From an uncultured bacterium (GTDB taxonomy: Bacteria; Fermentibacterota; Fermentibacteria; Fermentibacterales; Fermentibacteraceae), in contig CAZMTK010000003.1 of the NCBI GenBank assembly GCA_964569245.1, positions 58,485 to 122,484 of the forward strand: a stretch of 64,000 nucleotides of DNA, given 5' to 3'. This document shows, piece after piece, positions 41,726 to 58,933 of the stretch (positions are counted from its first letter, which is position 1; every line of letters starts with the position of its first letter). The position numbers were made by a program, and so were the translations under genes. Under the pieces are notes generated by a model. The model saw nothing but the letters and a program-made list of their open reading frames with translations, was not told the DNA's origin and ran no database searches.

Positions 41726-42199
41726 TTGCCGGGACGCGACCGGCTGCTGCCGGCAGCCCTGGCAGCCGCGTGTGCGGCGGCGCCTCCGCTTGCCGCGCTC
41801 ATTCTGTTCGGGCGTCCAGCCAGCACCATCTCCGATGCGGGCTCCCTTGCAAGGCTGGGCTGCGTGCTCGCTGCAAGCGCCGAGGCTCCCCCTGGAAGGC
41901 CGGCGCTGGACAGCCTGGCCGCGTGGGCGGGCTTCCGTCTGCCCGCCGGGGCTCTCCTGGAGCCCGGAACTTCAGGAGCGGCCTGCAGTCTCTTCCCGTT
42001 CAGGATCGCAGCCTTCTCCTTCCCTTCCGACTCCTCCGTCATGGTTCTGGTCTGCTGCCCGGTTCCCCTGGCACTTCGCGATCCGGGTCCCGGAGGGCCG
42101 AGGGTTCTGTACGGAGGCGGGAGAACTGCGGTCATCGTGCTCCCGGGCTCCGGGGATTCCGGAGCCGCCAGGGCGGCCGGATCGCTGGAGCCGGTATGA
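41726..42199 (+). CDS. Hypothetical secreted protein
   Basis: TTG start 5 nt after the anti-sigma stop, and a signal-peptide-like LLPAALAAACAAAPPLAALILF. The stop overlaps the next ATG (ATGA), which supports translation. Confidence 0.4.
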   Translation: MPGRDRLLPAALAAACAAAPPLAALILFGRPASTISDAGSLARLGCVLAASAEAPPGRPALDSLAAWAGFRLPAGALLEPGTSGAACSLFPFRIAAFSFPSDSSVMVLVCCPVPLALRDPGPGGPRVLYGGGRTAVIVLPGSGDSGAARAAGSLEPV

Positions 42200-42678
42200 C
42201 TCCGGCGCTCAGGTGGGGAGCGGCATGCCTCGCGGCCCTGCTCGCGTGCTGCTGCTCGAAGGGGGGAGGAGATGCCGCCCTGGAGCAGGCGCCGCCTGCG
42301 CCCCCGTCGCTTCCGGGAAGGTTGTTCGCCCCCGACGGAACTCCGGCGGAGGTGTCGGCTGATTCCGCGATAGTGCTGTACCTCTGGCTGCCGCTGCCGG
42401 GACATCCCGGGCCGGAGTCCGACCTCGAAGCCATAGCCGAAACAGGGACGGCCGGCAACGTGGCGGCCTTCGCAGTTCAGACCAGCCCGGCCGCGAGGAA
42501 CTCCGCACAGGAGCAGGTCAACTCCCTCGGAATAGTGCTCCCCGTCTTCCTCGCCGATTCGGCGGCAGCCAGATGCATCCCTCCAGGAGATCTCCCGGTG
42601 GCCGTGCTCTTCGGACCAGGCGGCTCTACGGAAGTGGAGACGGGATTCGGCGCTGTGGAGCGCCTGCTCTCGAAGTGA
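42196..42678 (+). CDS. Thioredoxin-fold (TlpA/ResA-like) lipoprotein lacking the CxxC active site
   Basis: Lipobox LLACC. The redoxin-like layout places VLYLW-LPLPGHP where WCxPC would be, followed by VAAFAVQTS...LGIVLPVFLAD...LPVAVLFGPGGS. Confidence 0.5.
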   Translation: MTPALRWGAACLAALLACCCSKGGGDAALEQAPPAPPSLPGRLFAPDGTPAEVSADSAIVLYLWLPLPGHPGPESDLEAIAETGTAGNVAAFAVQTSPAARNSAQEQVNSLGIVLPVFLADSAAARCIPPGDLPVAVLFGPGGSTEVETGFGAVERLLSK

Positions 42679-43475
42679 GCCTGGAGCTGGCTCCCGGCTG
42701 CAGGCCGTTCATCGCGGTGTCAGACATCCACCTCTTCCCGGAGGAGAAGCCCCATCCGGGCAGAGAGGGCTTTCTGTCCTTCCTCGGGGAGATCGCCCGG
42801 GCCAGTCCCGGCGAACTCTGGATCGTGGGAGACCTGTTCGATTTCTGGCACGAGAGGCGTGGAGCGCCCCCCGGCTTCTCCAGGGTCCTCGCAGCGCTGG
42901 CGACGGCATCCGGTGCCGGCTGGAGCGTGACGTTCCTGCCGGGGAACCACGACATGTGGGTGGGCGAAGCCTTCTCCGCGGCGACAGGCGCCAGGGTCCT
43001 GGATCGGGGGCCGGTCGAGGTCCTCGTCGAGGGCAGGAGGGTCCTGCTGGCGCACGGCGACGGACTCGGAAGGGGGGACTGGGGCTACAAGCTCCTCCTG
43101 GGGCCGTTCCTGAAGTCCGGTGTCGCGAGAGCGCTGTTCCGGGCCCTGCCGACGGGCGCCGGCGGGTTCCTCGCGGAGCTCGCGTCGGGCACCAGCCGAC
43201 GCATCCTCAGGAGGCAGTCCGACGTCGTCCCCCGGCACCTGCGCGCGTGGGCAGACGGGATGATCCGCTCAGGGATGGACATTGTGATAACAGGGCACTC
43301 TCACGTGGCAGGGGCCAGGTCCGCCGGAGGAGGGCTCCACATCTCCCTGGGAGACTGGCTCGGCGACTTCCACTACGCATCCTCCGATCCCTCCCTCGGC
43401 CTGCGCCTGGTCCGCTACGAAGCCCCCGGCATCCGGCCAGCAGGACCGCTCGTTGACCCGGGCACGGCAGGGTGA
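42675..43475 (+). CDS. LpxH-like metallophosphoesterase (UDP-2,3-diacylglucosamine pyrophosphatase family)
   Basis: IAVSDIHL, GDLFDFWH, GNHD, GHSH. The GTG start overlaps the upstream stop (GTGA). Confidence 0.6.
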   Translation: MSLELAPGCRPFIAVSDIHLFPEEKPHPGREGFLSFLGEIARASPGELWIVGDLFDFWHERRGAPPGFSRVLAALATASGAGWSVTFLPGNHDMWVGEAFSAATGARVLDRGPVEVLVEGRRVLLAHGDGLGRGDWGYKLLLGPFLKSGVARALFRALPTGAGGFLAELASGTSRRILRRQSDVVPRHLRAWADGMIRSGMDIVITGHSHVAGARSAGGGLHISLGDWLGDFHYASSDPSLGLRLVRYEAPGIRPAGPLVDPGTAG

Positions 43476-44448
43476 GATTTTCGCCTCCATGGAAGCAGGC
43501 GGAGGAATGCTGCTGAGCGTGGTCGTTCCGGCCTTCAACGAGGCCGAGAGCATTCCCGAGCTGGTAGCAGAGACTGCCGGCGCGCTCTCGGGTCGCGAGT
43601 GGGAGATGGTGATCGTAGATGACGGGAGCACCGACTCCACATGGGAAGAGATCCGCAGGGCGGCCTCCGCCTACCCCGTCACGGGCCTCAGGTTCGGGAG
43701 GAACCACGGAAAGGCCGCAGCGCTCTCGGCCGGCTTCGCCGCCGCCGGAGGGGCGATCATCGCGACGATGGACGCCGATCTCCAGGACGATCCGGCGGAG
43801 ATCCCCGCGATGGCCGATATGCTCGCAGAGTCGGGCCTTGGCGTAGTGAGCGGATGGAAGAAGGAGCGCAGGGACCCTCCGTCGAAGAGGCTCCCCTCCA
43901 AGTTCTTCAACGCCGTTGTGCGCCGCGCCACCGGGATACCCCTGCACGACTTCAATTGCGGACTCAAGGTGTACCGTGCCGAGGCGGCCAGACGCATGGA
44001 CCTGTATGGAGAGATGCACAGGTACACCCCCGTGCTGGTGTCCCAGCTTGGCTGGACAGCCGGGGAGAAGCCCGTCAACCACAGGCCGAGAATGCACGGA
44101 CGCAGCAAGTACGGCCCGGCGAGGTTCTTCCGAGGATACGCCGACCTTCTCACGGTGCTCTTCCTGCACCGCTACTCGTTCAGGCCTCTGCACTTCTTCG
44201 GAGGGATCGGCACGACGCTCTTCGCCGGAGGGCTGGGCATCTCCATCTACCTCACCATCCTCAAGATCGCAACCGGGGCCTCGATCGGCAGGAGGCCCCT
44301 CCTCCTCCTGGGCGTGTTCCTCATGATGATAGGATTCCAGTTCGTCTCGCTCGGCCTTCTCGGCGAGATGCAGCTCCGCCTGCTGCCCGGGAAGAGGCTC
44401 TACACGGTGGTGGAGACCGCGGGGCGCCCGACCGGCTCGGGGACATGA
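43453..44448 (+). CDS. GT2 polyprenyl-phosphate glycosyltransferase (DPM1/GtrB/ArnC-like)
   Basis: VVVPAFNE, DDGSTD, DAD motifs and two C-terminal TM helices. The true start may be M13 or M19, at 43489 or 43507. Confidence 0.8.
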   Translation: MTRARQGEIFASMEAGGGMLLSVVVPAFNEAESIPELVAETAGALSGREWEMVIVDDGSTDSTWEEIRRAASAYPVTGLRFGRNHGKAAALSAGFAAAGGAIIATMDADLQDDPAEIPAMADMLAESGLGVVSGWKKERRDPPSKRLPSKFFNAVVRRATGIPLHDFNCGLKVYRAEAARRMDLYGEMHRYTPVLVSQLGWTAGEKPVNHRPRMHGRSKYGPARFFRGYADLLTVLFLHRYSFRPLHFFGGIGTTLFAGGLGISIYLTILKIATGASIGRRPLLLLGVFLMMIGFQFVSLGLLGEMQLRLLPGKRLYTVVETAGRPTGSGT

Positions 44449-45551
44449 GGCTCATCGCCGCCGGCCCGTTCCCTCCTCACAGGGGCGGGATCTCCCAGTT
44501 CGGCATGAGGCTCGCCGACGCCCTGGAGGCCCGCGTTCAGGTGCTCAGGGCCGGGTTCTCGCGGCTCTATCCCCGCGCGCTCTTCCCCGGTGTCTCCCAG
44601 TTCGATCCGGCTGGCGGGGCCAGGGTGGCCACAGTCGCGACGATGGATTCCTGCAGCCCGCCGTCATGGCGTCGAACGAGGCGGGAGCTGTCCCGCCTCG
44701 GCGCCGATGCGGCAGTGGTCCAGTGGTGGCACCCGTTCTTCGCCCCCGCCCTGCACTGGAGCCTGCCCTCCGCGGGCGCGGTGCGCAGGGCGGCGGTCTG
44801 CCACAACATCCATCCCCACGAGGGCTTCCCGATGGGCAGGGCTCTGGCGAAGTGGTTCCTCGGAAAGGCGGAGGTCCTTGTCGTGCACAGCGCAGCCGAC
44901 GAGGAGAGGGCGCGGGCGCTGCTGCCCCGCGCCAGGCTCCTGAGGCTGTTCCACCCGGTCTACGACCAGTACCTGGCCTTCGACCGCGGCAGGGGCTCCG
45001 CGAGGAGCGCACTCGGCTACGGCGAGAGCGAGAGAGTCATCCTCTTCTTCGGGCTCGTGCGCCCCTACAAGGGGGTGGAGGATCTTGTCGAAGCCTTCCG
45101 GGAGATGCCTGGAGACTGCAAGCTGCTTCTCGCAGGAGAGTGCTACTCCGGCGCGGAGCCGATCAGGAAGGCGCTCGAGGGGACAGGCATCGCCCCCAGG
45201 GCTCGATGGGACGAGCGCTTCATTCCCGATGCCGAGGTCTGGGCCTACTTCAGGGCGGCCGACCTCGTAGTCCTGCCGTACAGGAGCGCCACCCAGAGCG
45301 GCGTTGCCCAGATAGCCGTCTCATTCGGCAGGCCCATGGTCCTCACGAGGACCGGCGGGCTGCCGGAGCTGATAGACGAGGGGCGAACAGGCTTCCTGGC
45401 CGAGCCCTGCTCGCCTGGAAGCCTCGCGGCAGCAATGAGGAGAGCGCTGGAGCTTCCGCAGGGAGCGGAGATGGAGGGCCGCGTGGCGCAGGTGGCGGCG
45501 AGGTTCTGCTGGGATCGCTATGCAGATTCCCTGCTGGAGGCGATCCTTTGA
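44445..45551 (+). CDS. GT4 (GT-B fold, family-1-like) glycosyltransferase
   Basis: C-terminal FGRPMVLTRTGGLPELI...GFL (EX7E region). The ATG overlaps the GT2 stop (ATGA). Confidence 0.75.
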   Translation: MRLIAAGPFPPHRGGISQFGMRLADALEARVQVLRAGFSRLYPRALFPGVSQFDPAGGARVATVATMDSCSPPSWRRTRRELSRLGADAAVVQWWHPFFAPALHWSLPSAGAVRRAAVCHNIHPHEGFPMGRALAKWFLGKAEVLVVHSAADEERARALLPRARLLRLFHPVYDQYLAFDRGRGSARSALGYGESERVILFFGLVRPYKGVEDLVEAFREMPGDCKLLLAGECYSGAEPIRKALEGTGIAPRARWDERFIPDAEVWAYFRAADLVVLPYRSATQSGVAQIAVSFGRPMVLTRTGGLPELIDEGRTGFLAEPCSPGSLAAAMRRALELPQGAEMEGRVAQVAARFCWDRYADSLLEAIL

Positions 45552-46441
45552 AGGTGTTCGTCGCCGGTGCGGGAGGCTTCGTCGGAGGCGCAGTCGCGGC
45601 TCTTCTCGAGAGCGCGGGTCACGAGGTCGCCGCTCACGTCCGCTCCCGCGACGGCGACGTCCGTCCCGGGTCGGTTCCATCGGATACCGGCCTGGTGGTC
45701 AATTCCGCCGGACGGCTTGGCGGGGCCGGAGTGGACGAGGCTGCGCTGGATGCCGGCAACGTCTCTCCTGCAAGAGTGCTGGCTCACGAGGCGGCTCGGC
45801 TCGGGATCCCTGTCGTGCATCTCGGCACGCCGGGCGTCGCAGGCCTCGTGGCAGGCGCCTCCGAGGACCTGCCGCCGGCCCCCTGGGGCGCCTACGAGCG
45901 ATCGAAGGCGCGTGCCGAGGAGATCCTCCGCTCGATCGTGCCCGAGGGAAGGCTCACGATACTGAGACCCGATTTCGTCTACGGCCCGGGCGACGTCCAC
46001 AAGGCCGCACTGTTCAGGCAGGCGGCGAAGGGCTGGTTCCCCCTGGTAGGAACTGGAGGGGCCAGGATAAGGCCCACCTATGTCCTCGATGTAGCGAGGG
46101 CCTGCATGGAGTCCATGCCGGGGGGGAGGCTCGAGGGCGGCGTCTTCCACATAGGCGGGCCGGAGGTCGTCACGGTGTCGGAGCTGATAGCGGCCGTAGG
46201 CAGGGCACTGGGAAGGCGCGTACTGCGCATTCCCGTGCCAAGGGCGGCGTTCCGCGCGGCGATCGCACTGGGGCTCTTCAGGGGAGTGCTGTCCGAGAGC
46301 CGGTATCTGCTGTTCGGGAGGGACCACTTCGTCTCCATCGAAAAGGCGTCCTCGGCCGGCTTCGTTCCCGGCACGGATCTGGCGCGGGGGCTGGAGGCCG
46401 CGGTGTCCTGGCTCAGAGCCGAAGGCATGGTGACGCGTTGA
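45548..46441 (+). CDS. NAD-dependent epimerase/dehydratase (SDR family)
   Basis: (M)KVFVAGAGGFVGG Rossmann motif and YERSKARAE (YxxxK). The TTG start overlaps the GT4 stop (TTGA). Confidence 0.8.
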   Translation: MKVFVAGAGGFVGGAVAALLESAGHEVAAHVRSRDGDVRPGSVPSDTGLVVNSAGRLGGAGVDEAALDAGNVSPARVLAHEAARLGIPVVHLGTPGVAGLVAGASEDLPPAPWGAYERSKARAEEILRSIVPEGRLTILRPDFVYGPGDVHKAALFRQAAKGWFPLVGTGGARIRPTYVLDVARACMESMPGGRLEGGVFHIGGPEVVTVSELIAAVGRALGRRVLRIPVPRAAFRAAIALGLFRGVLSESRYLLFGRDHFVSIEKASSAGFVPGTDLARGLEAAVSWLRAEGMVTR

Positions 46442-47394
46442 GCGCCTGGAGCAGGAACTTGATCGTGCGCTGGGCATCCAGGGCTGTTCTCGCAGTGCTG
46501 GTGCTCTTCGCTCTAGCTTCGGTGGCTGCGAGGTGGAGTGAGATCTCCGGTTCGTTCGAGAGGGTGAGCTGGTCTCCGGATCCGCTTGCACTCGCCGCTT
46601 CGGCGGTGATCCTGGCTGCATCGCTTGCATTCAATCCATTCGGCTGGATGATGCTCGCGAGAGAGCTGGGATCGGACACGTCCGCCGCCGGGCTGAGGGC
46701 TGCGTGGTTCGCCAGCCAGCTCGGAAGATACATGCCCGGCAAGATCTGGCTCTTCGCGGGCAGGATCGGGTTCCTGAGGAGCGAAGGGCTCTCCACTGCG
46801 CGCGCAGTCGCTGCCTCGGTCTGGGAGCTGGTCGCGGGCGCTGCGGCGGCAGGCGCCGTGGCCCTGCCCTGCATGCTGCTCTCCGGCGCCACGGACATCG
46901 CCCCTGCTGTGAGGACCGCAGCCACGGCGGCAGCCGCGGCGATGTTCCTGCTGCCCCTGCTGGGCCCCGTCCAGAAGGCTGCGTTCGCTCTGAAGGGCAG
47001 GTCCGCCTTCACGGGGATCCGGACTTCGGCAGGGCTGAGGGTGGCGGGCCTCTTCTGCACCCTCTGGGTGGCTCGCGGGCTCTCCCTCTACCTGTGGCTC
47101 ACCGGGCTGGGGCTGGAGACCCGCGGGTTCTGGCCCGTCATGGCTGCCGCGCCGCTGTCGTGGCTCGCGGGGTATATTGTCTTCGTAGTTCCCGGAGGCA
47201 TCGGCGTGAGGGAGACCGTGACGGCTGTGCTGGCGGCCCCTCCCGGCACGGCCGGCCCCGTTGTGGCCGCCTGCCTTTGCCAGACGGCGCTCATGGCCGT
47301 TCTCGAGATCCTTCTGGCGCTTCCCGCCTTCAGGGCGGCTCCTGGAGTCCGCGACACAGCGAAAGGCGGAGCAGATGGTGCGGATTCAGGCTGA
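46438..47394 (+). CDS. UPF0104 / lysylphosphatidylglycerol-synthase-TM (flippase-like) family membrane protein
   Basis: Multi-TM, with GRYMPGKIWLFAGRIGF and VVPGGIGVRET, which match my recollection of PF03706. The TTG start overlaps the epimerase stop (TTGA). Confidence 0.55.
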   Translation: MSAWSRNLIVRWASRAVLAVLVLFALASVAARWSEISGSFERVSWSPDPLALAASAVILAASLAFNPFGWMMLARELGSDTSAAGLRAAWFASQLGRYMPGKIWLFAGRIGFLRSEGLSTARAVAASVWELVAGAAAAGAVALPCMLLSGATDIAPAVRTAATAAAAAMFLLPLLGPVQKAAFALKGRSAFTGIRTSAGLRVAGLFCTLWVARGLSLYLWLTGLGLETRGFWPVMAAAPLSWLAGYIVFVVPGGIGVRETVTAVLAAPPGTAGPVVAACLCQTALMAVLEILLALPAFRAAPGVRDTAKGGADGADSG

Positions 47395-49651
47395 TCGAGG
47401 GAGCTGGCTGGCAGCGCTGGGTCTCATGGCTGCCCTGTCGGCTGCTGTGTACTGGAGCGTCCTGTCGTCCCCGCGCCTTCCGGGGGGCGATCTCAGCGAC
47501 ACCGTCCACCAGGGCTACCCCTTTCTCCAGTTCACAAGGCAGGCTCTCCTCGAATGGCGCCTGCCCCACTGGAATCCCTTCATCTATTGCGGAATCCCCT
47601 TCTACTCCTCGTTCTCCGCCCCTGTCACGTATCCGATCCGGGGCGCACTCCTGCTCGCAGGAGCCGAGGCTGCGGTCCGATTCCTCTTTCCCGTGCACCT
47701 CGTCATCGGAGGCATGTCGGCCTGGCTTCTCCTGGGGGCTGTGGGCGTGTCCCGCCAGGGGAGGCTGGCGGGTGCCCTCGCCTTCGCAGCCGGCGCCTGG
47801 GCGAACACCCTGTTCTATGCGGGGCATGGCAGCAAGATCATCTGCTGGAGCTACCTCCCCCTCCTGCTGTTCGCCTGCGAGCGATGGCTCGCCACCAGGC
47901 GGCTCTGGTTCGCAGCCCTGGGAGGCCTGTGCTTCGGCATGCAGGCGCTCTCGAGCCATCCCCAGATGCTGCTCTACAGCGGCATGGCCGCCCTCCTGTG
48001 GTCAGCGGCGAGGTCCCTGCAGTCGCGCTGCCTGCGGACGGCGGCGGCCGCCGCCGGCGGCCTGGCGCTCATGACCGTCCTCGGGCTCTCGGTCGGAGCT
48101 GTGCAGCTTCTTCCGGGGTATGATTTCTCCAGGTACTCCAGCCGGGGTGAGAACCTGTCGCTGGACCAGTCGCAGAGCTACTCCCTGCCGCCCGAGGAGA
48201 CGCTCGTCATGGTCTTCCCCCGCCTGTTCGGCTACAGGCACGGCTTCGCCGACAGCTCCGCCGGGGGCATCCCGCTCTACTGGGGGAGGCTCGGTCTGAG
48301 GCTCTCCAGCGAGTTCACCGGGGTCTCGGTAGCGCTTCTCGCGCTGATCGGCCTGCTCGCCGGGAGGTCGGCCTGCCGATGGCCCCTGCTCGCGATCCTG
48401 GTCACGGGGCTAGTCGTCTCGTGGGGCGGCTATACCCCCGTCTATTCTCTCCTCTACCGGCTGGTGCCGCTCTTCAGGAAGCTCAGGGCCCCCCACATGG
48501 CGGCGTTCCTCAGCACGTCGGCTCTCTCGCTGATGGCCGGCCCGGGCTTCGACGCGCTCCTCGCGAAAGGGGGCCGATCGTGGAAGGCGGCCCTCGTCTT
48601 CTCTGCATCGTGCCTGGTCGCCTTCATTGCGGCAGGCCCTATCGTGGAGAGCCTCCAGGCGGGATGGTGGGATAGGGCGGGGGTCGCCCCCTCCGACTGG
48701 ATCGTACAGCGGCGCATAGACATGGCTGCTGGTGACTTCCTGCGTGCCTGCGTCTCGGCCGCCTTGGTCGGGCTCGCCGGGCTGCTGGCCTCGAGGGGCA
48801 GGCTGACCCCGGGCGGCGCGCTGGTGCCTGCGCTCTTGCTCATGTCGCTGGAGCTCGTCCCGGTAGACAGGGATTTCCAGGTTTTCCTGCCGGACACCAG
48901 AATCGAGTCTGTGTGTCCGGACTATTCCCGGCTGGCCGCCGCCGCCGGCGGTGGGAGGGTTCTCCCTGGCGGAAACGAGATGATCCCGTCAGGAGTGCTG
49001 TCGGTCGCCGGGTATCACGCGGCGAGAACGCAGGCCAACGACGACATGCTGGAGCTTGTCTCCGGCGGCGGGCTGGCCGGGGCGAGGCTCACAGCCTTCA
49101 CGGTGCTCTTCGAGTCCGGCGTCGTAGTACCCTACGACTCGCTGATAGCGGCTGTCTCCGGAGGCCCGGGCGGCGTGCCGGAGGGGCTCGAGAGACCGCA
49201 GCCGAGAGTCTTCCTGGCGTCGGACTGGGCGGTGGATCCTGCATCGGCCGGGGGCTCCTTCGATCCCGGCGGCCCCCCGCCGGAGAGGCTCACGGTGCTG
49301 GACAGGGATCCCGGCATCCCGCACGGCGGCGACTCCTCCGGAACGGCCCGGATGGTTGCGGACCTGCCCGAGCTGGTCGTCGTGGAGACCTGCGCGGGCT
49401 CTCCCTCCATACTGGTCCTCGCCGACACCTGGTATCCCCGGTGGCGCGCCGAGGTCGACGGCGTCGAGACACCCCTTCTCAGGGCCAACTGCTGGCAGAG
49501 GGGCGTGGCCGTGCCTGCAGGGGAGCACACAGTGAGCTTCAGGTTCGACCATTCGGACGTGGGAATCGGCGCCCTCGCCAGCGTGACCGGGATCGCCCTG
49601 ACTGCGGGGATCGGCCTCCTCGAGCTGCTCTCGCGCCGCAGGAGGGCCTGA
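47375..49651 (+). CDS. YfhO-like large polytopic membrane protein (putative GT-C glycosyltransferase) with a C-terminal extracytoplasmic domain
   Basis: About 758 aa. The N-terminal roughly 550 aa hold many TM helices, and the C-terminal roughly 200 aa are soluble. Size, topology and the operon partners (GT2 plus flippase-like) fit YfhO/GT-C. Confidence 0.45.
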   Translation: MVRIQADRGSWLAALGLMAALSAAVYWSVLSSPRLPGGDLSDTVHQGYPFLQFTRQALLEWRLPHWNPFIYCGIPFYSSFSAPVTYPIRGALLLAGAEAAVRFLFPVHLVIGGMSAWLLLGAVGVSRQGRLAGALAFAAGAWANTLFYAGHGSKIICWSYLPLLLFACERWLATRRLWFAALGGLCFGMQALSSHPQMLLYSGMAALLWSAARSLQSRCLRTAAAAAGGLALMTVLGLSVGAVQLLPGYDFSRYSSRGENLSLDQSQSYSLPPEETLVMVFPRLFGYRHGFADSSAGGIPLYWGRLGLRLSSEFTGVSVALLALIGLLAGRSACRWPLLAILVTGLVVSWGGYTPVYSLLYRLVPLFRKLRAPHMAAFLSTSALSLMAGPGFDALLAKGGRSWKAALVFSASCLVAFIAAGPIVESLQAGWWDRAGVAPSDWIVQRRIDMAAGDFLRACVSAALVGLAGLLASRGRLTPGGALVPALLLMSLELVPVDRDFQVFLPDTRIESVCPDYSRLAAAAGGGRVLPGGNEMIPSGVLSVAGYHAARTQANDDMLELVSGGGLAGARLTAFTVLFESGVVVPYDSLIAAVSGGPGGVPEGLERPQPRVFLASDWAVDPASAGGSFDPGGPPPERLTVLDRDPGIPHGGDSSGTARMVADLPELVVVETCAGSPSILVLADTWYPRWRAEVDGVETPLLRANCWQRGVAVPAGEHTVSFRFDHSDVGIGALASVTGIALTAGIGLLELLSRRRRA

Positions 49652-49654
49652 AGA

Positions 49655-51790
49655 GTGGCGAGAAGAAAGGCTGCGGAGGCCGCCGCCGCCTGGCTGGGCG
49701 TGCTGCTGACCGCGGCTGCCGCGGCCGTCTTCGCGTTCGTCCTGTGGCCTTCGTGGAAGCCCCGGGTCGAGGCGTTCTTCTCGGGATTCGACCCCCTCGC
49801 GCGCTGGCCCCTGATAGCGCTCTCCGTGCTGTCCGCCCTGCTGAGCCAGGCGTTCGCGCCCTGCGCGTGGCAGAGGGTGCTCCGGGCGCTGTCCCTGCCC
49901 GGCTCGCACGGTTCCGACTCGAAGCGCAACTGGTACGTGACGCAGATGGGCAGCTACATCCCGGGGAAGTTCTGGATGTACATCGGGAGGGCGGCCTTCC
50001 TCGGCGCGCGCGGCGCCGGCGGCGCGAAGAGCAGCGCGGCCATCGCCCTGGAGAACATCTACCTCATGGTGTCGGTATGCCTCATGGCGCTGGTCGCTAT
50101 ACCCTTCACCGGCGGCACCCGCATGCCCGGGGGAGTCAGGGCAGCGCTCGCAGTCTCAATGGGAGCCACGCTCCTGGCGCTTCTTGCGCCCGGCATCAGG
50201 AGGGGGCTGGCGGCGCTGATCACGAGGAGGCCCGGCGGGGACCCCGGCGTACTGCCGGAGCTCTCCCTGGGCAGCCAGGCTGTCATGATAGGGTTCGACA
50301 TGCTCTCCTGGACCTTCAGGGGCGCTTCGCTCTTCTTCTGGTTCCTCGCGGCGGGTGCGGGCGCTGGCAGAGAGGTCCAGATGCTCTCCGTCTGCCTGCT
50401 GGCCATGCCCGTCTCCTGGCTCGCGGCACTGCTCCTCGTGATCGTGCCCGGGGGCATCGGTCTGCGCGAGTCCATCCAGGGGGTTCTTCTGCAGGAGTTC
50501 GCAGGAGCGTCTCTGGCCGTCGCCACTACCATCGCCCTCTCTCACAGGATCGTGCTCATCGTCTCCGAGGGAGTCTTCGCGGCCGGCGCGCTCGTCCTCG
50601 ACGGCCTCTGGAAGAGGCGCCCCTCGATGATGAGACATCTCCGCCAGTCGGCGAGGCTCGCGGCGTGCCTCCTGCGCGCCAGGCTGTTCATGATGGGCGT
50701 CGGGACCCCGCCGCCCCCTGTGAATCTCACCTTCTCGGTCACGAGGAGGTGCCAGTCGCGCTGCCGGACCTGCTACATCTGGAAGGCCCCTCCCCTCGAG
50801 GAGCTGTCGCTGGCGGAGATAGAGGCGCTCTTCCGGGAGATCGGCTGGACCTACTTCTTCAACGTCTCGGGCGGCGAGCCCTTCCTGCGGGACGACCTGC
50901 CGGAGATCGTGGGCCTCGCCTGCAGACACCTCGATCCCGCCGTCATCCACATCCCCACGAACGCCCTCCTGCCCGCTAGGATCGAGTCCATGACCGCCGA
51001 GATGCTGGAGATCGTCGCCCGCGAGGCGCCTGGAGCCGCGCTCACGATAAAGCCCTCCTTCGACGGGGTCGGGGACCTGCATGACGAGGTGCGGGGGGTC
51101 CCCGGCAACTTCGCCAGGCTCCTCGACACCCTCGAGAGGCTCCTGGCCCTGCGGGAGCGCCACCCCGAGCTGCATGTCGGAGTGGGCACGGTGATCTCCC
51201 GCGAGAACGCCGGAAGGCTCGGCGAGATCATGGAGTTCGCCGGCAGCCTCGGCGTGGACACCTACATCAACGAGATCGCCGAGGAGCGGGAGGAGTTCTT
51301 CAACCGCGGCTCAGGAATAACGCCCGACCCGGACACCTACCGCAGGATCATGCTCGGCTTCAAGGCAGCCGCCGTTGACAGGATGCGGAGCATGAAGCTC
51401 CTCGGGCGGATCACCACCGCGCTAAGGATCGTCTATTACGACCTTGTAGTGAGGATCATGCAGGAGAAGCGCCAGGTGATACCGTGCTACGCGGGAATAC
51501 TGAACGCCCACATCAACGCCGACGGAGCCCTCTGGCCCTGCGCGATAAGAGCCTACGGCTCCGAGATGGGGAGGGCGGGGCGAGAGGGCGGCTTCGCCGG
51601 AGCGTGGAAGTCCGAAAGGGCCCGCGCGATCAGGCGCTCGATCAGGAGGGGGGAGTGCGGCTGCCCGCTCGCCAACCAGGCCTATTCCAACATCCTCATG
51701 CATGCGCCAAGCCTTCTCCGCGCAGCCCGCACTGCGCTGTTCCCGGGCAGGGCCTCCGCGCGGTCTCCCCGGCAGGAAGGAGCAGGATGA
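49655..51790 (+). CDS. Fusion of a UPF0104/LPG-synthase-TM flippase-like membrane domain and a radical SAM/SPASM enzyme
   Basis: Residues 1-340 are paralogous to the gene at 46438 (SYIPGKFWMYIGRAAF, IVPGGIGLRESI). Residues 350-711 carry radical SAM motifs CQSRCRTC (CxxxCxxC), SGGEPFL and IPTNALL. A Cys-rich SPASM-like tail follows (PCYAG...WPC...ECGCP). Confidence 0.7.
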   Translation: MARRKAAEAAAAWLGVLLTAAAAAVFAFVLWPSWKPRVEAFFSGFDPLARWPLIALSVLSALLSQAFAPCAWQRVLRALSLPGSHGSDSKRNWYVTQMGSYIPGKFWMYIGRAAFLGARGAGGAKSSAAIALENIYLMVSVCLMALVAIPFTGGTRMPGGVRAALAVSMGATLLALLAPGIRRGLAALITRRPGGDPGVLPELSLGSQAVMIGFDMLSWTFRGASLFFWFLAAGAGAGREVQMLSVCLLAMPVSWLAALLLVIVPGGIGLRESIQGVLLQEFAGASLAVATTIALSHRIVLIVSEGVFAAGALVLDGLWKRRPSMMRHLRQSARLAACLLRARLFMMGVGTPPPPVNLTFSVTRRCQSRCRTCYIWKAPPLEELSLAEIEALFREIGWTYFFNVSGGEPFLRDDLPEIVGLACRHLDPAVIHIPTNALLPARIESMTAEMLEIVAREAPGAALTIKPSFDGVGDLHDEVRGVPGNFARLLDTLERLLALRERHPELHVGVGTVISRENAGRLGEIMEFAGSLGVDTYINEIAEEREEFFNRGSGITPDPDTYRRIMLGFKAAAVDRMRSMKLLGRITTALRIVYYDLVVRIMQEKRQVIPCYAGILNAHINADGALWPCAIRAYGSEMGRAGREGGFAGAWKSERARAIRRSIRRGECGCPLANQAYSNILMHAPSLLRAARTALFPGRASARSPRQEGAG

Positions 51791-52503
51791 AGCTTCTCGA
51801 GATGACGACCCACGACTTCGCGAGGCTGGAACCCTCGCTCGCCTTCCTCCCCCTCGGTACGGTGGAGGCGCACGACCTCGGCCCGCTGGGAACCGACGCA
51901 GTCGCACCCGAGCGCATAGCCTGCGACCTGGCGGGCAGGTTCGGGGCGGTCGTGCTCCCCACCATGCCATACGGGCTCGTACGCTCTCTGGCCGGCCACC
52001 CCGGCGGCATGTGGCTCACGGAGGATACCTACAGGGCCGTGGTGCTGGAGCTGATAGGCTCGATATCCCTCTCGGGCGTCTCCAGGCTGGTCGTCTTCAA
52101 CGGGCACGGCGGCAACACCGGCGTCCTCAGGGAGGTCCTGCCGGAGGCAGTGGAGAGATACGGGACGATGACGGCTCTGGTTGACTGGTGGGTCGCGGGG
52201 GGCGACATCGCACGGAGGCTCTTCGGCGGCGCCGCCGGGCACGGGGGCTCTGACGAGCTCTCGGTCGTCTTCTCGGACAGGCTGGACATGCTGCCGGAGT
52301 GGGACGGAAGCAGGTCGTGGAGGGCGGTCGAAGGGGCGTGGGCGTGGCCCGCCCCAAGGTCATCGATCAGGTACGACGACGAACCTGCAAGACCCCTCGA
52401 GCGGGGCGCGGCGGCCGAATACTACAGACTCCTGCTGGAGAGGCTGGAAGTGACGGTCGAGGGCATCCTGTCCGGCTGGGACTCGATCCCGCGCATCACC
52501 TGA
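51787..52503 (+). CDS. Creatininase-family (creatinine amidohydrolase/MftE/ArfB-fold) hydrolase
   Basis: LAFLPLGTVEAHDLGPLGTDAV and VFNGHGGN signatures. The ATG overlaps the radical SAM stop (ATGA). Confidence 0.8.
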   Translation: MKLLEMTTHDFARLEPSLAFLPLGTVEAHDLGPLGTDAVAPERIACDLAGRFGAVVLPTMPYGLVRSLAGHPGGMWLTEDTYRAVVLELIGSISLSGVSRLVVFNGHGGNTGVLREVLPEAVERYGTMTALVDWWVAGGDIARRLFGGAAGHGGSDELSVVFSDRLDMLPEWDGSRSWRAVEGAWAWPAPRSSIRYDDEPARPLERGAAAEYYRLLLERLEVTVEGILSGWDSIPRIT

Positions 52504-54782: not shown

Positions 54783-55612
54783 CAGGAGTCGTCCTCCACG
54801 GGGGAATAGACCTGTCCGCGGGAGGGGAACCCCCCCGACCTCACCTCGGAGGCGTATGACCTCACGGCTCCGACCATTGCGTCGTAGAGCTGCGCGAATC
54901 TCCTGAGGAACCTCGGCTCGAAGCCCGGTGTGAGGCCGAGCATGTCGCTCGCGACCAGTATCTGGCCGTCCGTGAACCTCCCGGCTCCTATCCCTATCGT
55001 CGGGACGGATACCGAGGCGGTGACGTCCCTTCCGACAGACTCCTCGACGCTCTCGACGACCAGCGCGAACACCCCCGCCGCCTCCAGGGCCCGTGCCTCG
55101 CCCACGAGCCGGTCGGTGGCCTGGGCGGACGTCACACGGTACCCTCCCGTGAGCCTGACCGACTGCGGCAGCAGGCCGATGTGGCCCATCACGGGTATTC
55201 CGGACTCGACGAGAGCCGCGACTCTCTCGAGGGTTCTGGGTCCCGCCCCCTCCAGCTTGACGGCGTCGGCCCCCCCCTCGGAGAGGAAGCGAGATGCGTT
55301 CCTCACGGCGTCCTCGACGGACGCCTGGTAGGAGCCGAACGGCATGTCTCCCACCACCAGCGTTCCCGGCGCGCCCCGCCTGACAGCCCTCGCATGGGCC
55401 ACCAGCAGGTCCATGGTTGCCCCCAGAGTGGTTTCCTCGCCCATCACCGCCATGACCATGGAGTCCCCGACCAGGATGAAATCCACGCCGGCCTCCTCCT
55501 CGGCCCTTGCCGTAGGGCAGTCGTAGGCGGTCAGGGCCACGATCCTCTCCCCCCGCCTCTTCAGGTCGAGCAGGCGCTGGATGGTGCCCCTTCCTCGGTC
55601 CTCACTCCTCAT
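54782..55612 (-). CDS. panB: 3-methyl-2-oxobutanoate hydroxymethyltransferase
   Basis: TAYD, LVGDS, GHIGL(L)PQ motifs, 276 aa. Confidence 0.9.
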   Translation of the reverse strand: MRSEDRGRGTIQRLLDLKRRGERIVALTAYDCPTARAEEEAGVDFILVGDSMVMAVMGEETTLGATMDLLVAHARAVRRGAPGTLVVGDMPFGSYQASVEDAVRNASRFLSEGGADAVKLEGAGPRTLERVAALVESGIPVMGHIGLLPQSVRLTGGYRVTSAQATDRLVGEARALEAAGVFALVVESVEESVGRDVTASVSVPTIGIGAGRFTDGQILVASDMLGLTPGFEPRFLRRFAQLYDAMVGAVRSYASEVRSGGFPSRGQVYSPVEDDS

Positions 55613-56516
55613 CGCCTTCCCCTCCCTGGCGCATCGCCCCGTCGGGCAGGAGCACCCTGTAGACGAGCACGTATGCAGCGAAGCCGTAGATCAGCCCGGC
55701 CAGTATGTCTATGACGTAGTGCTCCGCTCCGTAGACCACCTCGAAGCAGATGGCGGCCACGGGCAGGGCCACCCAGGCGGCCCGCCGCCCGAACTCGTGC
55801 AGGGCGACGAGCAGGGTCATGAACGGAAGCCCCGCGTGGAGAGAGGGCATCGCGCCTCTCGGGCTGGGCTGGAAGGCGCCCTGAAGCCAGTTCGACGTGA
55901 ACCTTCCCATGGCGTCGAAGACAATCCTCTGCACTTCGGGGAAGGCTCCCTCGAGCTTCGCCATCCAGGGCGGGGTGAGAGGGAACAGCACATAGGTCAG
56001 ATAGCCCGCCATGGATATCAGCGTCACGGCCGCCGCGCCCCTCTTCATGGAATCGGGCCCCCTGCGCCAGAGGAGCACTCCCGGCAGCAGCAGGGGGAAG
56101 GCGAAGAGGGATGCGTGCAGCACTGCGAAGGCGTAGTCGTACCATCTGAAGCCGGGGGTGGGATGCAGCACGGACTGCAGCCATACTGTCGGCAGGACTC
56201 CGAATATCCGCTGCTCGAGCTCCGTCACGCCTGGGCCGTGGAACGGGTCGAACCTGGTCGAGACCACGATCCGCAGGGCCTGGTAGCTTCCCGTCAGCAC
56301 GAGGTAGTAGACCCAGCGCTTGGCAGCGTCAGGGAGGGGCTTCCACAGGTAGAGCGCGTATAGCGCGCCGAATATCAGGAGCTGGAGCGGAAACCTCGGG
56401 ACGAGCCTCGCGAAAGGCACGAGCGAGACCGCGATGGAGTACGCGCCGCAGACGGCGAGGATGAGGCTGTAGCTCCTGTCCTTGATTCCCGGCATGCTCA
56501 AGAGGCTGCGAGACAT
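55602..56516 (-). CDS. PAP2-superfamily membrane protein (PAP2_3 / inositol-phosphorylceramide-synthase-like)
   Basis: Six-TM topology with the PAP2 catalytic triad arrangement (K...RW, PSLHAG, YGAEHYVID). Overlaps the panB start by 11 nt. Confidence 0.55.
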   Translation of the reverse strand: MSRSLLSMPGIKDRSYSLILAVCGAYSIAVSLVPFARLVPRFPLQLLIFGALYALYLWKPLPDAAKRWVYYLVLTGSYQALRIVVSTRFDPFHGPGVTELEQRIFGVLPTVWLQSVLHPTPGFRWYDYAFAVLHASLFAFPLLLPGVLLWRRGPDSMKRGAAAVTLISMAGYLTYVLFPLTPPWMAKLEGAFPEVQRIVFDAMGRFTSNWLQGAFQPSPRGAMPSLHAGLPFMTLLVALHEFGRRAAWVALPVAAICFEVVYGAEHYVIDILAGLIYGFAAYVLVYRVLLPDGAMRQGGEGDEE

Positions 56517-56739
56517 TCCGCTCAGCAGCTCCTGAAGCGACGGAGGGGCGGAGCGGCTGTGGGGGGCCAGGGTCCTGAAGAATGAACGTTCGGCAGAGTT
56601 AGAGGACTTGTACGGCCTCGGCGCATCTCGCTTGGGCGGCGCGCCCCGGAGGGCGGCTGCTTCGGCTCAGCGCAAGGGCGATGCCTCCATCGGTAACCAA
56701 AGCACTCCCAGGCTGTGGCCCCCCGTGACCGAAGGTAGG

Positions 56740-57261
56740 TCATTCCGTTCCCGGTGTCAAACCCCGGGGCGGCCCCGTCCCGGAGTCGGGGCCGGGGAGC
56801 CCTCCCGACAGCGCCGGTATGACTCTCCTGGCGCACGCGTAGCGTCTGGCGTAGCCCGGCTGGTCGAGGCTGGTGATCACCACGCCCCTGTCCTGGTAGG
56901 ACGACGAGTGGATGAACTGGCCGTTTCCCAGATAGATCCCCACGTGCCCGGGATCGTCGAAGAAGACCAGGTCGCCCGGAAGGAGGTCGTCCTCACCGAT
57001 GCCGGCGCCCGCATCTCTCATGTCCCCGGCGGTCCTGGGCAGCGTCAGGCCGTTGTCGGCGAAGACGCGGAACACTAGACCGCTGCAGTCGAACCCGCCG
57101 GGCCCTGTGCCGCCGTAGACGTAAGGCGCCCCCAGAAAGGAGACGGCGTCCTCGACTATGCGGCAGGCGAGGACGGAATCCGGCAGGACCGGAATCGAGT
57201 CCGGACCCGCATCTGCCGCGGTTAGCAGGGCTGAGAGCACGACAGCGCACATCGCTAGCAT
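56740..57261 (-). CDS. NlpC/P60-family (C40) peptidoglycan endopeptidase
   Basis: Signal peptide, YVYGG...GFDCSGLV (catalytic Cys), GDLVFFD...GHVGIY (His). Confidence 0.8.
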   Translation of the reverse strand: MLAMCAVVLSALLTAADAGPDSIPVLPDSVLACRIVEDAVSFLGAPYVYGGTGPGGFDCSGLVFRVFADNGLTLPRTAGDMRDAGAGIGEDDLLPGDLVFFDDPGHVGIYLGNGQFIHSSSYQDRGVVITSLDQPGYARRYACARRVIPALSGGLPGPDSGTGPPRGLTPGTE

Positions 57262-57343
57262 CTGGCGCCCCCTCCCTTCCCCGGGGTTGCCGCGCCGGAA
57301 GCGGTAACATAAGGAATGGGAGGCGTCGGGGGCACCGACCAGC

Positions 57344-58933
57344 CTATCTGGTCGGAACCAGTATCACCGCCGCCGCGGGTCTTGGCTCGTCGGTCCAGAC
57401 AGGGTCGGCATCGGGCGGCATGCGATCCAGGCAGATCAGGCACTCGATCCCCAGCTCGCGGATGACGCTGTCTGCCTCCGGTGAGGGCCAGGAGTTCAGC
57501 ATCTCGGCAGTGCGCCGGTATCCCTCGGGAAGAGTGGTGGCATAGCCGTTTGCCATCGGGGTGAAATGGAGCATGGAGCCGTAGAGGTTCGTACATTCAT
57601 GCTCCGGAACGTCGAGCGAGGTTCCCACGGGAAGTATCGCGATGGCCTCGAAATCCTTCGATGCGAGCCACGAGTGGTACCTCCTCGGCTCAACCGGCTG
57701 GAGCCTCATCGGTCCCGGCCATACCTCCGCCAGCGACATCGCGGCTCCCAGCACTGCGATCATAGGCCTTCCTCTCATCGTGCGCCCCGCAGCCAGCATG
57801 ACGGGGAAGAGGAAGAAGACCCCCGCCCTCGCAGGCAGCCTTATCGAAGAGAAGCCCGGCAGGCCGGCGATCAGTCTCCAGGGCGCGGGCGAGACGGGCC
57901 TGCCGAAGACCGACAGCGTGGGGCCGAGGCAGAAGACTGCGAAAACAGCTGCCGAGAGAGCGAAGTACCAGCCCCATGCGATGCCGGCGGCTTCCCTCTT
58001 CCTGCGGAGGAGGAACAGGAGGGTCCCCAGAGCTGCCGCCATGCCGGGCCAAAGGGCCGCCTCTCCATGGGTCGTGGAAGGCCTCGCCCATCCGAGCAGC
58101 CTGCTGCTCTCCCAGGGCGAGAGGAAGGCCGACACGTCTGTAGAGGCCATGGAGTCGGGGCTCCAGCCTGAGGAGTGAGAGAAGTGTCCCGCAGCCAGCA
58201 GCAGGGCTGCAGAGGCGGCGAACCCCGCTCCGGCCCAGAGCGAGGTCCGCGCCAGCCCCTTCGAGCCGCCGGATGCCGCCGCCCAGGGCAGCGCGAGCAG
58301 CAGTGCGACCCCCAGGAACAGCCAGTAGTAGAGCGAGGCGCAGCACTGCAGGACCACTAGCAGCGCCAGGGGCCACCCGGCGCCGGTTCCTGAGGAGACC
58401 CTCATGGTCTGCCTCACGGCAAGGAAGGCGAATCCCGGGGACATGAGCTGGATGTGCCACAGGTGGCTCTGGAAGAACGGGGCGCAGACCATCGCCGATG
58501 CTGCGAACATGGCTCCCCAGCGGTCGAGGCCCGCCTCCCTGGCCAGCATGAAGAGGCCGAAGCCCGCGAACGCCATGGAGACTGCGAAGACGATGTTGTG
58601 GGCGGCGAGGGGCGATGCCCCCGCCAGCCTCGCAGGGACGGCGGCGGCCGACTGGGCCAGCAACAGGTCGCTCCGCCCCTGAGCGTCGGGCTGTCCCAGG
58701 AACACGGGGGGATGGAAGGGGTTCGCCAGGGTCGAGACGGCGTGGATGTTCCACTCCATGAGCCAGGTGTTGAACAGCGTGTCCGCCCTGTCGTGCGCGC
58801 CGGAGCCGGGTCTCGCGAGCATCGGCCAGGTGACGGCCGCGGCCATCGCCAGGCATATCGCCGCCGCGGCTGCGAGCTCCCGTGCGGAGACGCCCGGAGG
58901 GGCAGCCCTGCTGCGTCTAGTACGCCCTGGCAA
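57344..58933 (-). CDS. Hypothetical large polytopic membrane protein (possible GT-C-type glycosyltransferase)
   Basis: 529 aa with about 10 or more predicted TM helices and a roughly 130-aa soluble C-terminal domain; no firm family call. Confidence 0.4.
   Translation of the reverse strand: MPGRTRRSRAAPPGVSARELAAAAAICLAMAAAVTWPMLARPGSGAHDRADTLFNTWLMEWNIHAVSTLANPFHPPVFLGQPDAQGRSDLLLAQSAAAVPARLAGASPLAAHNIVFAVSMAFAGFGLFMLAREAGLDRWGAMFAASAMVCAPFFQSHLWHIQLMSPGFAFLAVRQTMRVSSGTGAGWPLALLVVLQCCASLYYWLFLGVALLLALPWAAASGGSKGLARTSLWAGAGFAASAALLLAAGHFSHSSGWSPDSMASTDVSAFLSPWESSRLLGWARPSTTHGEAALWPGMAAALGTLLFLLRRKREAAGIAWGWYFALSAAVFAVFCLGPTLSVFGRPVSPAPWRLIAGLPGFSSIRLPARAGVFFLFPVMLAAGRTMRGRPMIAVLGAAMSLAEVWPGPMRLQPVEPRRYHSWLASKDFEAIAILPVGTSLDVPEHECTNLYGSMLHFTPMANGYATTLPEGYRRTAEMLNSWPSPEADSVIRELGIECLICLDRMPPDADPVWTDEPRPAAAVILVPTR

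Follow-up and report, generated by a model that had tools for sequence, protein, structure and literature searches.

What does a radical S-adenosylmethionine (rSAM) enzyme do when it is built into a flippase-like membrane protein? The question is raised by a gene at 49655..51790 on the plus strand of a 64,000-nucleotide stretch of contig CAZMTK010000003.1 (the window), which derives from an uncultured bacterium of the Fermentibacteraceae. The gene encodes a protein of 711 amino acids (aa), in which a UPF0104/MprF-type membrane domain is followed by an rSAM domain, and it lies in an operon together with glycosyltransferase genes. An earlier note on this DNA had described the fusion and had linked it to the creatininase-family hydrolase encoded next to it. 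We consider it rather probable that the protein follows the "modify then flip" principle of MprF, with an rSAM domain that acts as the tailoring enzyme for a lipid-linked sugar in an envelope glycosylation or glycolipid operon.

The fusion protein and its two halves

The fusion gene is a single open frame. Its translation contains no internal stop, and no frameshift separates the two halves, in agreement with the earlier note. GTG 49655 is the start, an AGGAGG lies 9-14 nt upstream of it, and a gap of 3 bp separates it from the end of the preceding YfhO-family gene. The same fused frame is seen in 59 species-level genome loci and the public gene calls at an identical locus (L088) concur, so the fusion is not an assembly artefact.

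The C-terminal half (aa 343-711; 50681..51790, plus strand) is a cytoplasmic rSAM domain with one predicted auxiliary-cluster site. PF04055 scores 49.9 bits on residues 361-529 (gathering score 29.5), and all three motifs on which the rSAM assignment had been based are present: CxxxCxxC as C366-QSR-C370-RT-C373, GGEPFL within SGGEPFL (405-411) and TNALL within PTNALL (434-439). The domain has the GGE-type SAM-binding motif and a partial TIM-barrel fold. The cysteines of CxxxCxxC (C366, C370 and C373; 50750..50773, plus strand), which ligate the radical SAM [4Fe-4S] cluster, do not vary among 36 relatives and are at least 98% conserved over 110 family representatives. A set of polar residues, comprising S468, D470, R480, N518, E540, E543, R545 and E547, is also conserved.

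The earlier note had further pointed to a Cys-rich auxiliary-cluster region at the C-terminus. Judged by its conserved cysteines and the SPASM profile, this region is C611-x12-G-x4-C629 ... C668-x-C670-PLANQ (51485..51664, plus strand). Its four cysteines are the sole conserved ones in the C-terminal part; they are invariant in the 36 relatives and 94-96% conserved across the 110 representatives. The part of the claim that does not stand is a full seven-Cys SPASM. The SPASM profile (PF13186) scores 21.2 bits on the window's copy, under the cut-off of 21.5, and is matched at E<=1e-3 by 32 of the 36 relatives. Of the full motif, CX9-15GX4C...CX2CX5CX3C...C, only the first half and C668-x-C670 are found. 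The four-Cys half-motif fits a twitch domain, for which the NCBIfam model NF033640 gives 25 bits (cut-off 170). With four conserved C-terminal cysteines, the pattern indicates a twitch-like enzyme, predicted to carry a single auxiliary cluster where a full SPASM domain would have two.

The N-terminal half (aa 1-342; 49655..50680, plus strand) is polytopic. The earlier note had called it a UPF0104 domain and had named the lack of a match to that family as grounds for dropping the assignment. Taken alone, residues 1-342 of the window's copy indeed give no match to PF03706 even at E<=10. The profile is matched by 18 of the 22 orthologous fusion proteins tested, with a best E of 5.9e-18. In addition, the half is a paralogue of the product of the gene at 46438..47394, as had been noted (31% identity, E 5e-20), and has the fold of an MprF-type membrane domain. 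On account of its orthologues, the paralogue in the window and the fold, the N-terminal half belongs to the UPF0104/MprF-type despite the failed direct Pfam match. The motifs RRNW..QMG.Y.PG..WM..GR, LENIY and PGG.G.RE are kept across the fusion orthologues. A long linker helix (residues 323-346) ends the membrane domain and runs into the rSAM barrel; an equivalent N-terminal stretch of ~30 residues is retained by stand-alone rSAM relatives.

The closest architectural parallel is MprF. Like the fusion, it tethers a UPF0104 lipid-flippase-type membrane domain to a cytoplasmic enzyme that modifies head groups. The catalytic part of MprF is a tRNA-dependent aminoacyl-phosphatidylglycerol synthase, whereas that of the fusion is an rSAM domain with two predicted Fe-S clusters. 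The contexts differ as well, with phospholipid aminoacylation for MprF and glycosyltransferases for the fusion, and the window's membrane domain, unlike that of MprF, is too diverged to pass PF03706 by itself.

Distribution of the fusion and of its radical SAM family

A search over ~5.8 billion proteins returned ~90 full-length orthologues of 680-725 aa and 51-99% identity, which, where named, come from Candidatus Fermentibacteria, Aegiribacteria and Sabulitectum. We also scanned one genome per GTDB species, which gave 304 loci with relatives, and inspected 80 of these. The UPF0104 and rSAM domains are contiguous in one frame in 59 of the 61 Fermentibacteria loci among them, so the conservation of the fusion, which the earlier note had proposed to check in other genomes, is established within this group.

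A second fusion lineage is represented by P0096 and P0102, both ~705 aa long. In its rSAM half, P0096 has more in common with stand-alone enzymes (63%) than with the copies of the Fermentibacteria (52%), and its membrane half is just 26% identical to the window's, which is below the 31% between the two paralogues of the window. For these reasons the fusion probably arose at least twice, independently, as far as sequence comparison can tell. Split versions occur too. In a metagenome-assembled genome (MAG) of the Clostridia (L069), a UPF0104 gene, whose product passes the PF03706 gathering score with 48.9 bits, extends into the beginning of the rSAM gene. A similar overlapping, unfused pair is found in Pyramidobacter (L073), and in a Myxococcales MAG (L084) a UPF0104 gene adjoins the rSAM gene.

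Two of these loci have further features. In L084 (4873..7945), the rSAM gene is divergent from a block that consists of the UPF0104 gene, a gene for a 362-aa unknown protein and one for a second, different rSAM/SPASM protein (353 aa). In L089 (2944..5353), the P0096 fusion gene is preceded by a gene for a FabA/ApeI-like dehydratase and followed by a YfhO-like gene, and an AMP-binding (acyl-activating) enzyme is encoded nearby on the opposite strand. The dehydratase and the AMP-binding enzyme hint at an acylated product in that lineage.

The rSAM domain itself is spread far more widely. A phmmer search with the rSAM half against 1.84 billion cluster representatives found relatives in 300 clusters at E<=1e-30 and in 3202 at E<=1e-10, mostly 340-400 aa long. 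The family, ~300 clusters at 50% identity, extends over many bacterial phyla and DPANN archaea. For 21 loci with a stand-alone rSAM, which represent at least 10 phyla, we grouped the neighbours by clustering. The sources of these loci are Christensenellaceae, Clostridia, Pyramidobacter, Nitrospirota, Acidobacteriota, Myxococcales/Bradymonadia, Armatimonadetes, Riflebacteria, Sedimentisphaerales, Nanoarchaeia and Woesearchaeota. Neighbour calls based on open reading frames (ORFs) are crude in the high-GC loci, and clusters of antisense ORFs seen there were disregarded. The most frequent neighbours are a family 4 glycosyltransferase (GT4; 14 loci), a short-chain dehydrogenase/reductase (SDR; 12), an ArnC-like family 2 glycosyltransferase (GT2; 11) and a MOP/Wzx flippase (9), followed by a methyltransferase (6), a pyruvyl transferase (4), a DUF362-ferredoxin (3) and, in the deltaproteobacterial set, a DegT aminotransferase (3).

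The arrangement of these genes is also recurrent. The MOP/Wzx flippase gene often lies directly upstream of the rSAM gene or overlaps it (L074, L083, L066), and a typical order is GT2-GT4-SDR-Wzx-pyruvyl transferase-rSAM (L068, L079). In L076 the gene after the rSAM gene is of the YfhO family (54.3 bits, which passes the gathering score), in L089 a YfhO-like gene comes after the fusion, and in L085 the gene after the rSAM gene encodes a PMT_2/TPR protein of the GT-C fold. Two relatives are themselves fusions, P0507 with a WecG/TagA glycosyltransferase domain (E 1.6e-50) and P0409 with a PTPS-related membrane domain. Because of the glycan-gene neighbours across phyla and the glycosyltransferase fusion, we assign the rSAM family, from its genomic context, to lipid-linked glycan pathways as one of their components. 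Among the predicted gene products, the most constant physical neighbour of the rSAM is a membrane protein of flippase type, which belongs to MOP in some loci and to UPF0104 in others. Independent fusions, overlapping split pairs and MOP proteins in the same position together point to an rSAM enzyme that works with a flippase on a lipid-linked glycan, and we regard the genomic evidence for this predicted partnership as unusually strong.

Other relatives show additional domain combinations. In P0385 the partner is a ferredoxin-reductase-type domain (FAD_binding_6), which may supply electrons from within the protein; an intein splits P0458, and P0403 has HEAT/LRV repeats.

The same neighbourhoods bear on a different substrate. 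By analogy with HpnH-, Tes- and MSS-type enzymes, the earlier note had considered rSAM enzymes that modify lipids, and the rSAM domain might accordingly couple C-C bonds in, cyclise or methylate the hydrocarbon portion of a polyprenol or membrane lipid, in the manner of Tes/GDGT-MAS, Grs or HpnH, with the membrane domain presenting the lipid. That analogy and the tethering of the enzyme to the membrane speak for such a role. We find it improbable all the same. The match to Tes is 39.1 bits against a cut-off of 450, and neither Tes/GDGT-MAS nor HpnH, the rSAM enzymes acting on lipid tails, is matched at the equivalog level, so the analogy does not amount to family membership. Across phyla, the conserved genes around the rSAM are not those of lipid synthesis; they encode glycosyltransferases, SDRs, aminotransferases for sugars, a pyruvyl transferase and flippases for glycans, and P0507 is joined to a glycosyltransferase domain. 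The strongly polar conserved residues, from S468 to E547, suit a polar head group. The broader idea of a lipid- or polyprenyl-linked substrate gains support from the glycan-operon context.

A glycan operon and a proposed pathway

In the window the fusion is part of a 12-gene plus-strand operon, as delineated by the public gene calls at L088 and profile searches. Most of the genes overlap by ~4 bp, which is consistent with one operon. Eight of them, beginning with a gene for a 160-aa unknown protein and ending with the fusion, are retained by those Fermentibacteria loci (~60 species) that extend far enough upstream.

Five of the conserved genes stand directly upstream of the fusion. The GT2 enzyme (43453..44448, plus strand; PF00535 105 bits) resembles the polyprenyl-phosphate glycosyltransferases ArnC, PgfS, AglJ and PpgS. 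It matches ArnC over the full length at 167.5 bits and PgfS at 96 bits, and these matches, as well as those to AglJ and PpgS, are below the equivalog cut-offs; we therefore place it by sequence in the polyprenyl-phosphate sugar synthase class, and not as an orthologue of a named member. It has two C-terminal hydrophobic segments within residues 240-289. Copies at 46-61% identity adjoin stand-alone rSAM relatives in other phyla. The GT4 enzyme (44445..45551, plus strand; PF13692, PF00534) has distant, sub-cut-off matches to MshA, BshA and GlcNAc-phosphatidylglycerol synthase (43 bits against 480). It is followed by an extended SDR of the NAD-dependent epimerase/dehydratase family (45548..46441, plus strand; PF01370, PF04321), whose top NCBIfam match is HpnA at 48 bits (cut-off 368), and by the stand-alone UPF0104 (MprF-type flippase-like) paralogue (46438..47394, plus strand). 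The latter matches the full PF03706 profile at 25.5 bits, below the gathering score, and is present in all Fermentibacteria loci that reach far enough upstream. The last of the five is a 758-aa membrane protein of the YfhO family with the GT-C glycosyltransferase fold (47375..49651, plus strand). The gene calls contain no small flippase of the GtrA/GtcA or ArnE/F type in the operon, a role that the UPF0104 domains would fill.

From the domain identities, the fusion and its conservation, the cluster-binding motifs, the operon and the linkage across phyla, we infer a substrate, flipping by UPF0104 domains, an order of steps and an actual radical chemistry as follows. The UPF0104 membrane domain would be tethered through the linker helix to a cytoplasmic rSAM enzyme that modifies head groups and carries the SAM cluster and one auxiliary [4Fe-4S] cluster. 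At the cytoplasmic face, the ArnC/PgfS-like GT2, possibly with the GT4, would load a sugar onto a membrane lipid carrier. The rSAM domain would then abstract a hydrogen atom from the lipid-linked sugar and tailor it, with the SDR as the likely redox partner. The fused and the stand-alone UPF0104 domains would translocate the lipid-linked intermediates, and the YfhO-family GT-C enzyme would transfer the sugar from the flipped donor to a periplasmic acceptor.

Candidate reactions for the rSAM domain are oxidation followed by reduction (a net epimerisation), deoxygenation and decarboxylation. An oxidation/reduction couple is suggested by the auxiliary cluster and the neighbouring SDR. The epimerisation could be likened to that of DprE1/DprE2, which carry out an aerobic net epimerisation on decaprenyl-phosphoribose; the alternatives would be a deoxygenation as in AprD4/AprD3 or a decarboxylation as in BlsE. 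It is also conceivable, as a speculation, that each of the two flippase domains has its own lipid, one being a glycolipid acceptor that the GT4 produces and the other a polyprenyl-phosphate sugar donor. The acceptor would be comparable to that of gpgSDF (PMC12713373) and the donor to that of CsbB/GtcA/YfhO (PMC5836110, PMC8035078).

Several points weigh against this pathway. We know of no characterised member of the rSAM family. NCBIfam gives no equivalog for the domain; its top match, to the PTO1314 family, reaches 48 bits where 306 are required, and a PDB sequence search with the rSAM half yields weak, generic matches (SkfB 2e-5, GDGT-MAS 1e-3). The SDRs near stand-alone rSAMs are just 24-34% identical to the window's SDR and may for this reason not be orthologous. 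In two Fermentibacteria loci, L055 (10058..11200) and L064 (7855..9132), the rSAM gene comes straight after the YfhO-like gene and has no membrane domain, so the tether is not essential. To our knowledge, flipping by UPF0104 proteins is unproven outside MprF. For the stand-alone proteins, GpgF included, flippase activity is unproven (PMC12713373), and HpnL, a membrane protein of the UPF0104/AglD family, has no known function (bioRxiv 10.1101/2025.07.29.667474).

The two loci with an unfused rSAM gene either lost the fusion or never gained it, and they represent natural controls for the contribution of the tether.

Some of these points would equally fit an N-terminal domain that is no flippase. 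It could be an anchor, a substrate-binding scaffold or a docking module that holds the rSAM domain close to the GT2 and GT-C enzymes, with translocation carried out by something else. In line with this, the window's copy is under the PF03706 threshold, the fused domain is missing from two Fermentibacteria lineages, the operon always has a UPF0104 paralogue of its own besides the fusion, and the flipping activity of such stand-alone proteins is unproven (PMC12713373). The conservation of the RRNW, LENIY and PGG.G.RE motifs in the fusion orthologues argues the other way, as does the presence of bona fide MOP/Wzx flippase-family proteins in the equivalent position in other phyla. We consider this alternative unlikely and retain "modify then flip" as the preferred explanation.

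Each component of the proposed pathway has known counterparts. GT2/flippase/GT-C systems, in which a polyprenyl-phosphate sugar synthase is combined with a flippase and a GT-C enzyme, include CsbB/GtcA/YfhO, GtrA/B/C, ArnC/ArnD/ArnEF/ArnT and Pgf of S. mutans. The window shares with them the ArnC/PgfS-like GT2 and the YfhO-family protein of the GT-C fold. SDR enzymes are part of the Arn pathway. They are also part of the Pgf system (PMC8035078), and CsbB/GtcA/YfhO is a three-component glycosylation system (PMC5836110, PMC8035078). The window's operon differs in that its flippase is of the UPF0104 type, not GtrA or ArnE/F, and in that it has an extra GT4. It also has an rSAM enzyme, a component for which our literature searches found no parallel in any described system of this type.

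A second group of counterparts consists of gpgSDF of P. aeruginosa, for glucosaminyl-phosphatidylglycerol, and hexSDF of C. difficile, for an aminoglycolipid. Each combines a GT4, a de-N-acetylase and a predicted flippase of the UPF0104 type in one operon, the products of which attach an amino sugar to a membrane lipid (PMC12713373, PMC10128005). In common with them, the window has a GT4, two UPF0104 domains and, in its clade, an amidohydrolase; the latter differs in fold and is not conserved. The gpgSDF and hexSDF operons, unlike the window's, are without an rSAM, GT2 or GT-C component. For the tailoring step, the closest known enzymes are the sugar-tailoring twitch/SPASM rSAMs BlsE, DesII and BtrN, and AprD4/AprD3 as a pair of an rSAM and an SDR.

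The hopanoid side-chain genes hpnA/I/J/K/L have a similar cast, directed at the head group of a membrane lipid, with a glycosyltransferase, a deacetylase, the rSAM HpnJ, the SDR HpnA and the UPF0104/AglD-family HpnL. This likeness is not orthology. An HpnL model does not match the stand-alone UPF0104 paralogue at E<=0.1, and profile searches do not support orthology for HpnL or HpnJ; HpnJ belongs to a different rSAM class from the window's enzyme. No hopanoid synthesis genes lie near the operon. A scheme on the lines of tunicamycin TunA/TunB, with an SDR, an rSAM, a glycosyltransferase and a deacetylase, was also considered and was not retained.

Full-text searches over 8 million papers found none on rSAM enzymes with UPF0104, flippase-like, lysylphosphatidylglycerol synthase, Wzx/SPASM or polyprenyl phosphate/GT-C as the second subject, and, for rSAM with YfhO, only incidental co-mentions in two papers. 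A 2026 review of lipid-modifying rSAMs has no flippase-fused or polyprenyl-linked case, and the words flippase, polyprenyl, undecaprenyl and transmembrane are absent from it. The impression in the earlier note that the fusion architecture had not been described is thus upheld for the literature searched.

The fusion is assembled from parts of known kinds, namely an MprF-type domain, a twitch/SPASM rSAM, GT2/flippase/GT-C and GT4/UPF0104, and is no categorically new system. What may be new is the step. We tentatively raise the possibility, which we hold to be somewhat short of even, that this is the first rSAM acting on a lipid-linked sugar (a polyprenyl-phosphate sugar or a glycolipid head group), built on the MprF plan and feeding a GT-C enzyme, and that it represents a widespread, unrecognised tailoring step in anaerobes. 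GT2/flippase/GT-C systems and MprF-type modifiers shape envelope charge, susceptibility to antibiotics and phages, and host recognition. We know of no extracytoplasmic glycosylation system or MprF-type modifier that includes radical chemistry. Once identified, the reaction might prove to be a sugar modification that is new and restricted to anoxic conditions, with O2-independent epimerisation, deoxygenation or decarboxylation on a polyprenyl-phosphate sugar as the candidates. The fusion also offers a natural system for testing whether UPF0104 domains truly flip lipids, and provides a functional entry point to an operon that is core and phylum-wide in the uncultured Fermentibacteria.

The creatininase-family gene and the surroundings of the operon

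The last gene of the operon (51787..52503, plus strand) encodes a creatininase-family metal amidohydrolase of 238 aa (PF02633 112 bits). As the earlier note had observed, its ATG at 51787 sits in an ATGA overlap with the stop of the fusion. The metal-site motifs E..H..D and HGGN line up with a solved creatininase. None of the named members of PF02633 is matched at the equivalog level: the scores and cut-offs are 49.2 and 235 bits for creatininase, 45.6 and 172 for MftE (TIGR03964), 27.7 and 245 for IolN and 13.3 and 180 for ArfB.

The coupling of the fusion to this hydrolase, as stated in the earlier note, does not hold beyond the closest relatives. The gene is found downstream of the fusion in 5 of the 56 Fermentibacteria loci with at least 800 bp of sequence there; a further, partial copy in L025 (Ca. 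Fermentibacter daniensis) is cut by the contig end. All the loci that carry it belong to the window's closest clade, with rSAM halves 71-88% identical, and all six loci of that clade keep it (L004, L025, L032, L033, L062 and L065). In the other loci the operon ends with the fusion, and convergent genes come next, most often Sua5/YrdC-purE-purD-panB. Orthologues of the hydrolase at 50-56% identity adjoin RmuC/KNTase genes or a Vut_1 transporter, and no creatininase-family gene lies near the 21 stand-alone rSAM loci. With 5 of 56 loci and orthologues in unrelated contexts, the hydrolase was rejected as a conserved partner.

Within the window's clade, the creatininase-fold amidohydrolase may add a de-N-acylation like that of ArnD or GpgD, outside the conserved system. 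It could even be a true pathway partner there, which de-N-acetylates or deformylates a lipid-linked amino sugar before flipping and so gives a cationic envelope decoration. Such a role would supplement the "modify then flip" explanation, not replace it. The 4-bp ATGA overlap within the same operon, the aligned metal-site motifs and the retention of the gene in all six closest-clade loci are in its favour, and the family includes a formamide hydrolase, ArfB, albeit as a weak match. A deacylase, ArnD, is part of the GT2/GT-C Arn system, and NaxD, GpgD, HexD and PIG-L are comparable. Deacylases also occur in gpgSDF (PMC12713373) and hexSDF (PMC10128005). The gene is, however, missing from ~50 other Fermentibacteria loci with an otherwise identical operon, its 50-56% identical orthologues are beside RmuC/KNTase or Vut_1 and not glycan genes, and there is no member of the family near the stand-alone rSAMs. 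We know of no creatininase-family enzyme that acts on lipid-linked sugars, and regard this role as somewhat unlikely.

The pairing of an rSAM/SPASM-type enzyme with a creatininase-family one recalls MftC/MftE of mycofactocin, as was pointed out earlier. In a maturation pathway of that type, for a ribosomally synthesised and post-translationally modified peptide or a cofactor, the rSAM enzyme would modify a peptide and the creatininase-fold peptidase would trim it. MftC and MftE are among the weak NCBIfam matches, and the structural neighbours of the rSAM domain include SkfB, SuiB, CteB and PqqE. The scores are far below the cut-offs, with 39.9 bits against 265 for MftC (TIGR03962) and the value given above for MftE. 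Genes that overlap or are 3 bp apart leave no room for a precursor ORF, and the absence of such an ORF had already been noted. The two genes are paired in just ~10% of loci, and in each of the phyla examined the conserved surroundings are those of glycan biosynthesis, unlike mycofactocin. We rejected this explanation, which we find scarcely credible, because of the sub-cut-off scores, the overlapping genes without a small ORF between them and the rarity of the pairing.

The 3' end of the creatininase-family gene overlaps convergently with that of a minus-strand gene of the Sua5/YrdC family by 8 bp (52496..52503).

The operon begins with a gene for an extracytoplasmic function (ECF) sigma factor (40925..41500, plus strand; Sigma70_r2, Sigma70_r4_2; public gene call at L088). 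A 74-aa zf-HC2 anti-sigma factor follows (41497..41721, plus strand; public gene call, PF13490), whose gene overlaps the sigma gene by 4 bp. The pair suggests control of the operon by envelope stress. The phylum is predicted to be diderm with lipopolysaccharide (PMC5030696). Next come two conserved genes without a Pfam match, for proteins of 157 aa (41726..42199, plus strand) and 160 aa (42196..42678, plus strand), the second of which is kept upstream of the phosphoesterase gene in the Fermentibacteria loci. The phosphoesterase is LpxH-like (42675..43475, plus strand; PF00149), with LpxH as its top NCBIfam match at 81.8 bits (cut-off 134). Its gene is conserved in the operon across Fermentibacteria and was not found beside the stand-alone rSAM relatives. 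The enzyme may be the lipid A LpxH of the organism or a paralogue for another UDP-linked intermediate.

Rfam and tRNA scans of the window gave nothing relevant. An excess of T over A (AT skew -0.22 to -0.24) at 46001..50000 coincides exactly with three consecutive genes for polytopic membrane proteins; it is the compositional footprint of hydrophobic codons and no separate feature.

Beyond the convergent Sua5-purE-purD-panB block, the public gene calls on the minus strand comprise 55602..56501, for a membrane protein resembling PAP2_3 phosphatases, 56740..57261, for a protein of the NlpC/P60 type, and 57344..58933, for a DUF6311 protein of 529 aa; another large gene comes next. The minus-strand genes at 55602..58933 may constitute a second cluster related to the envelope or to a lipid carrier.

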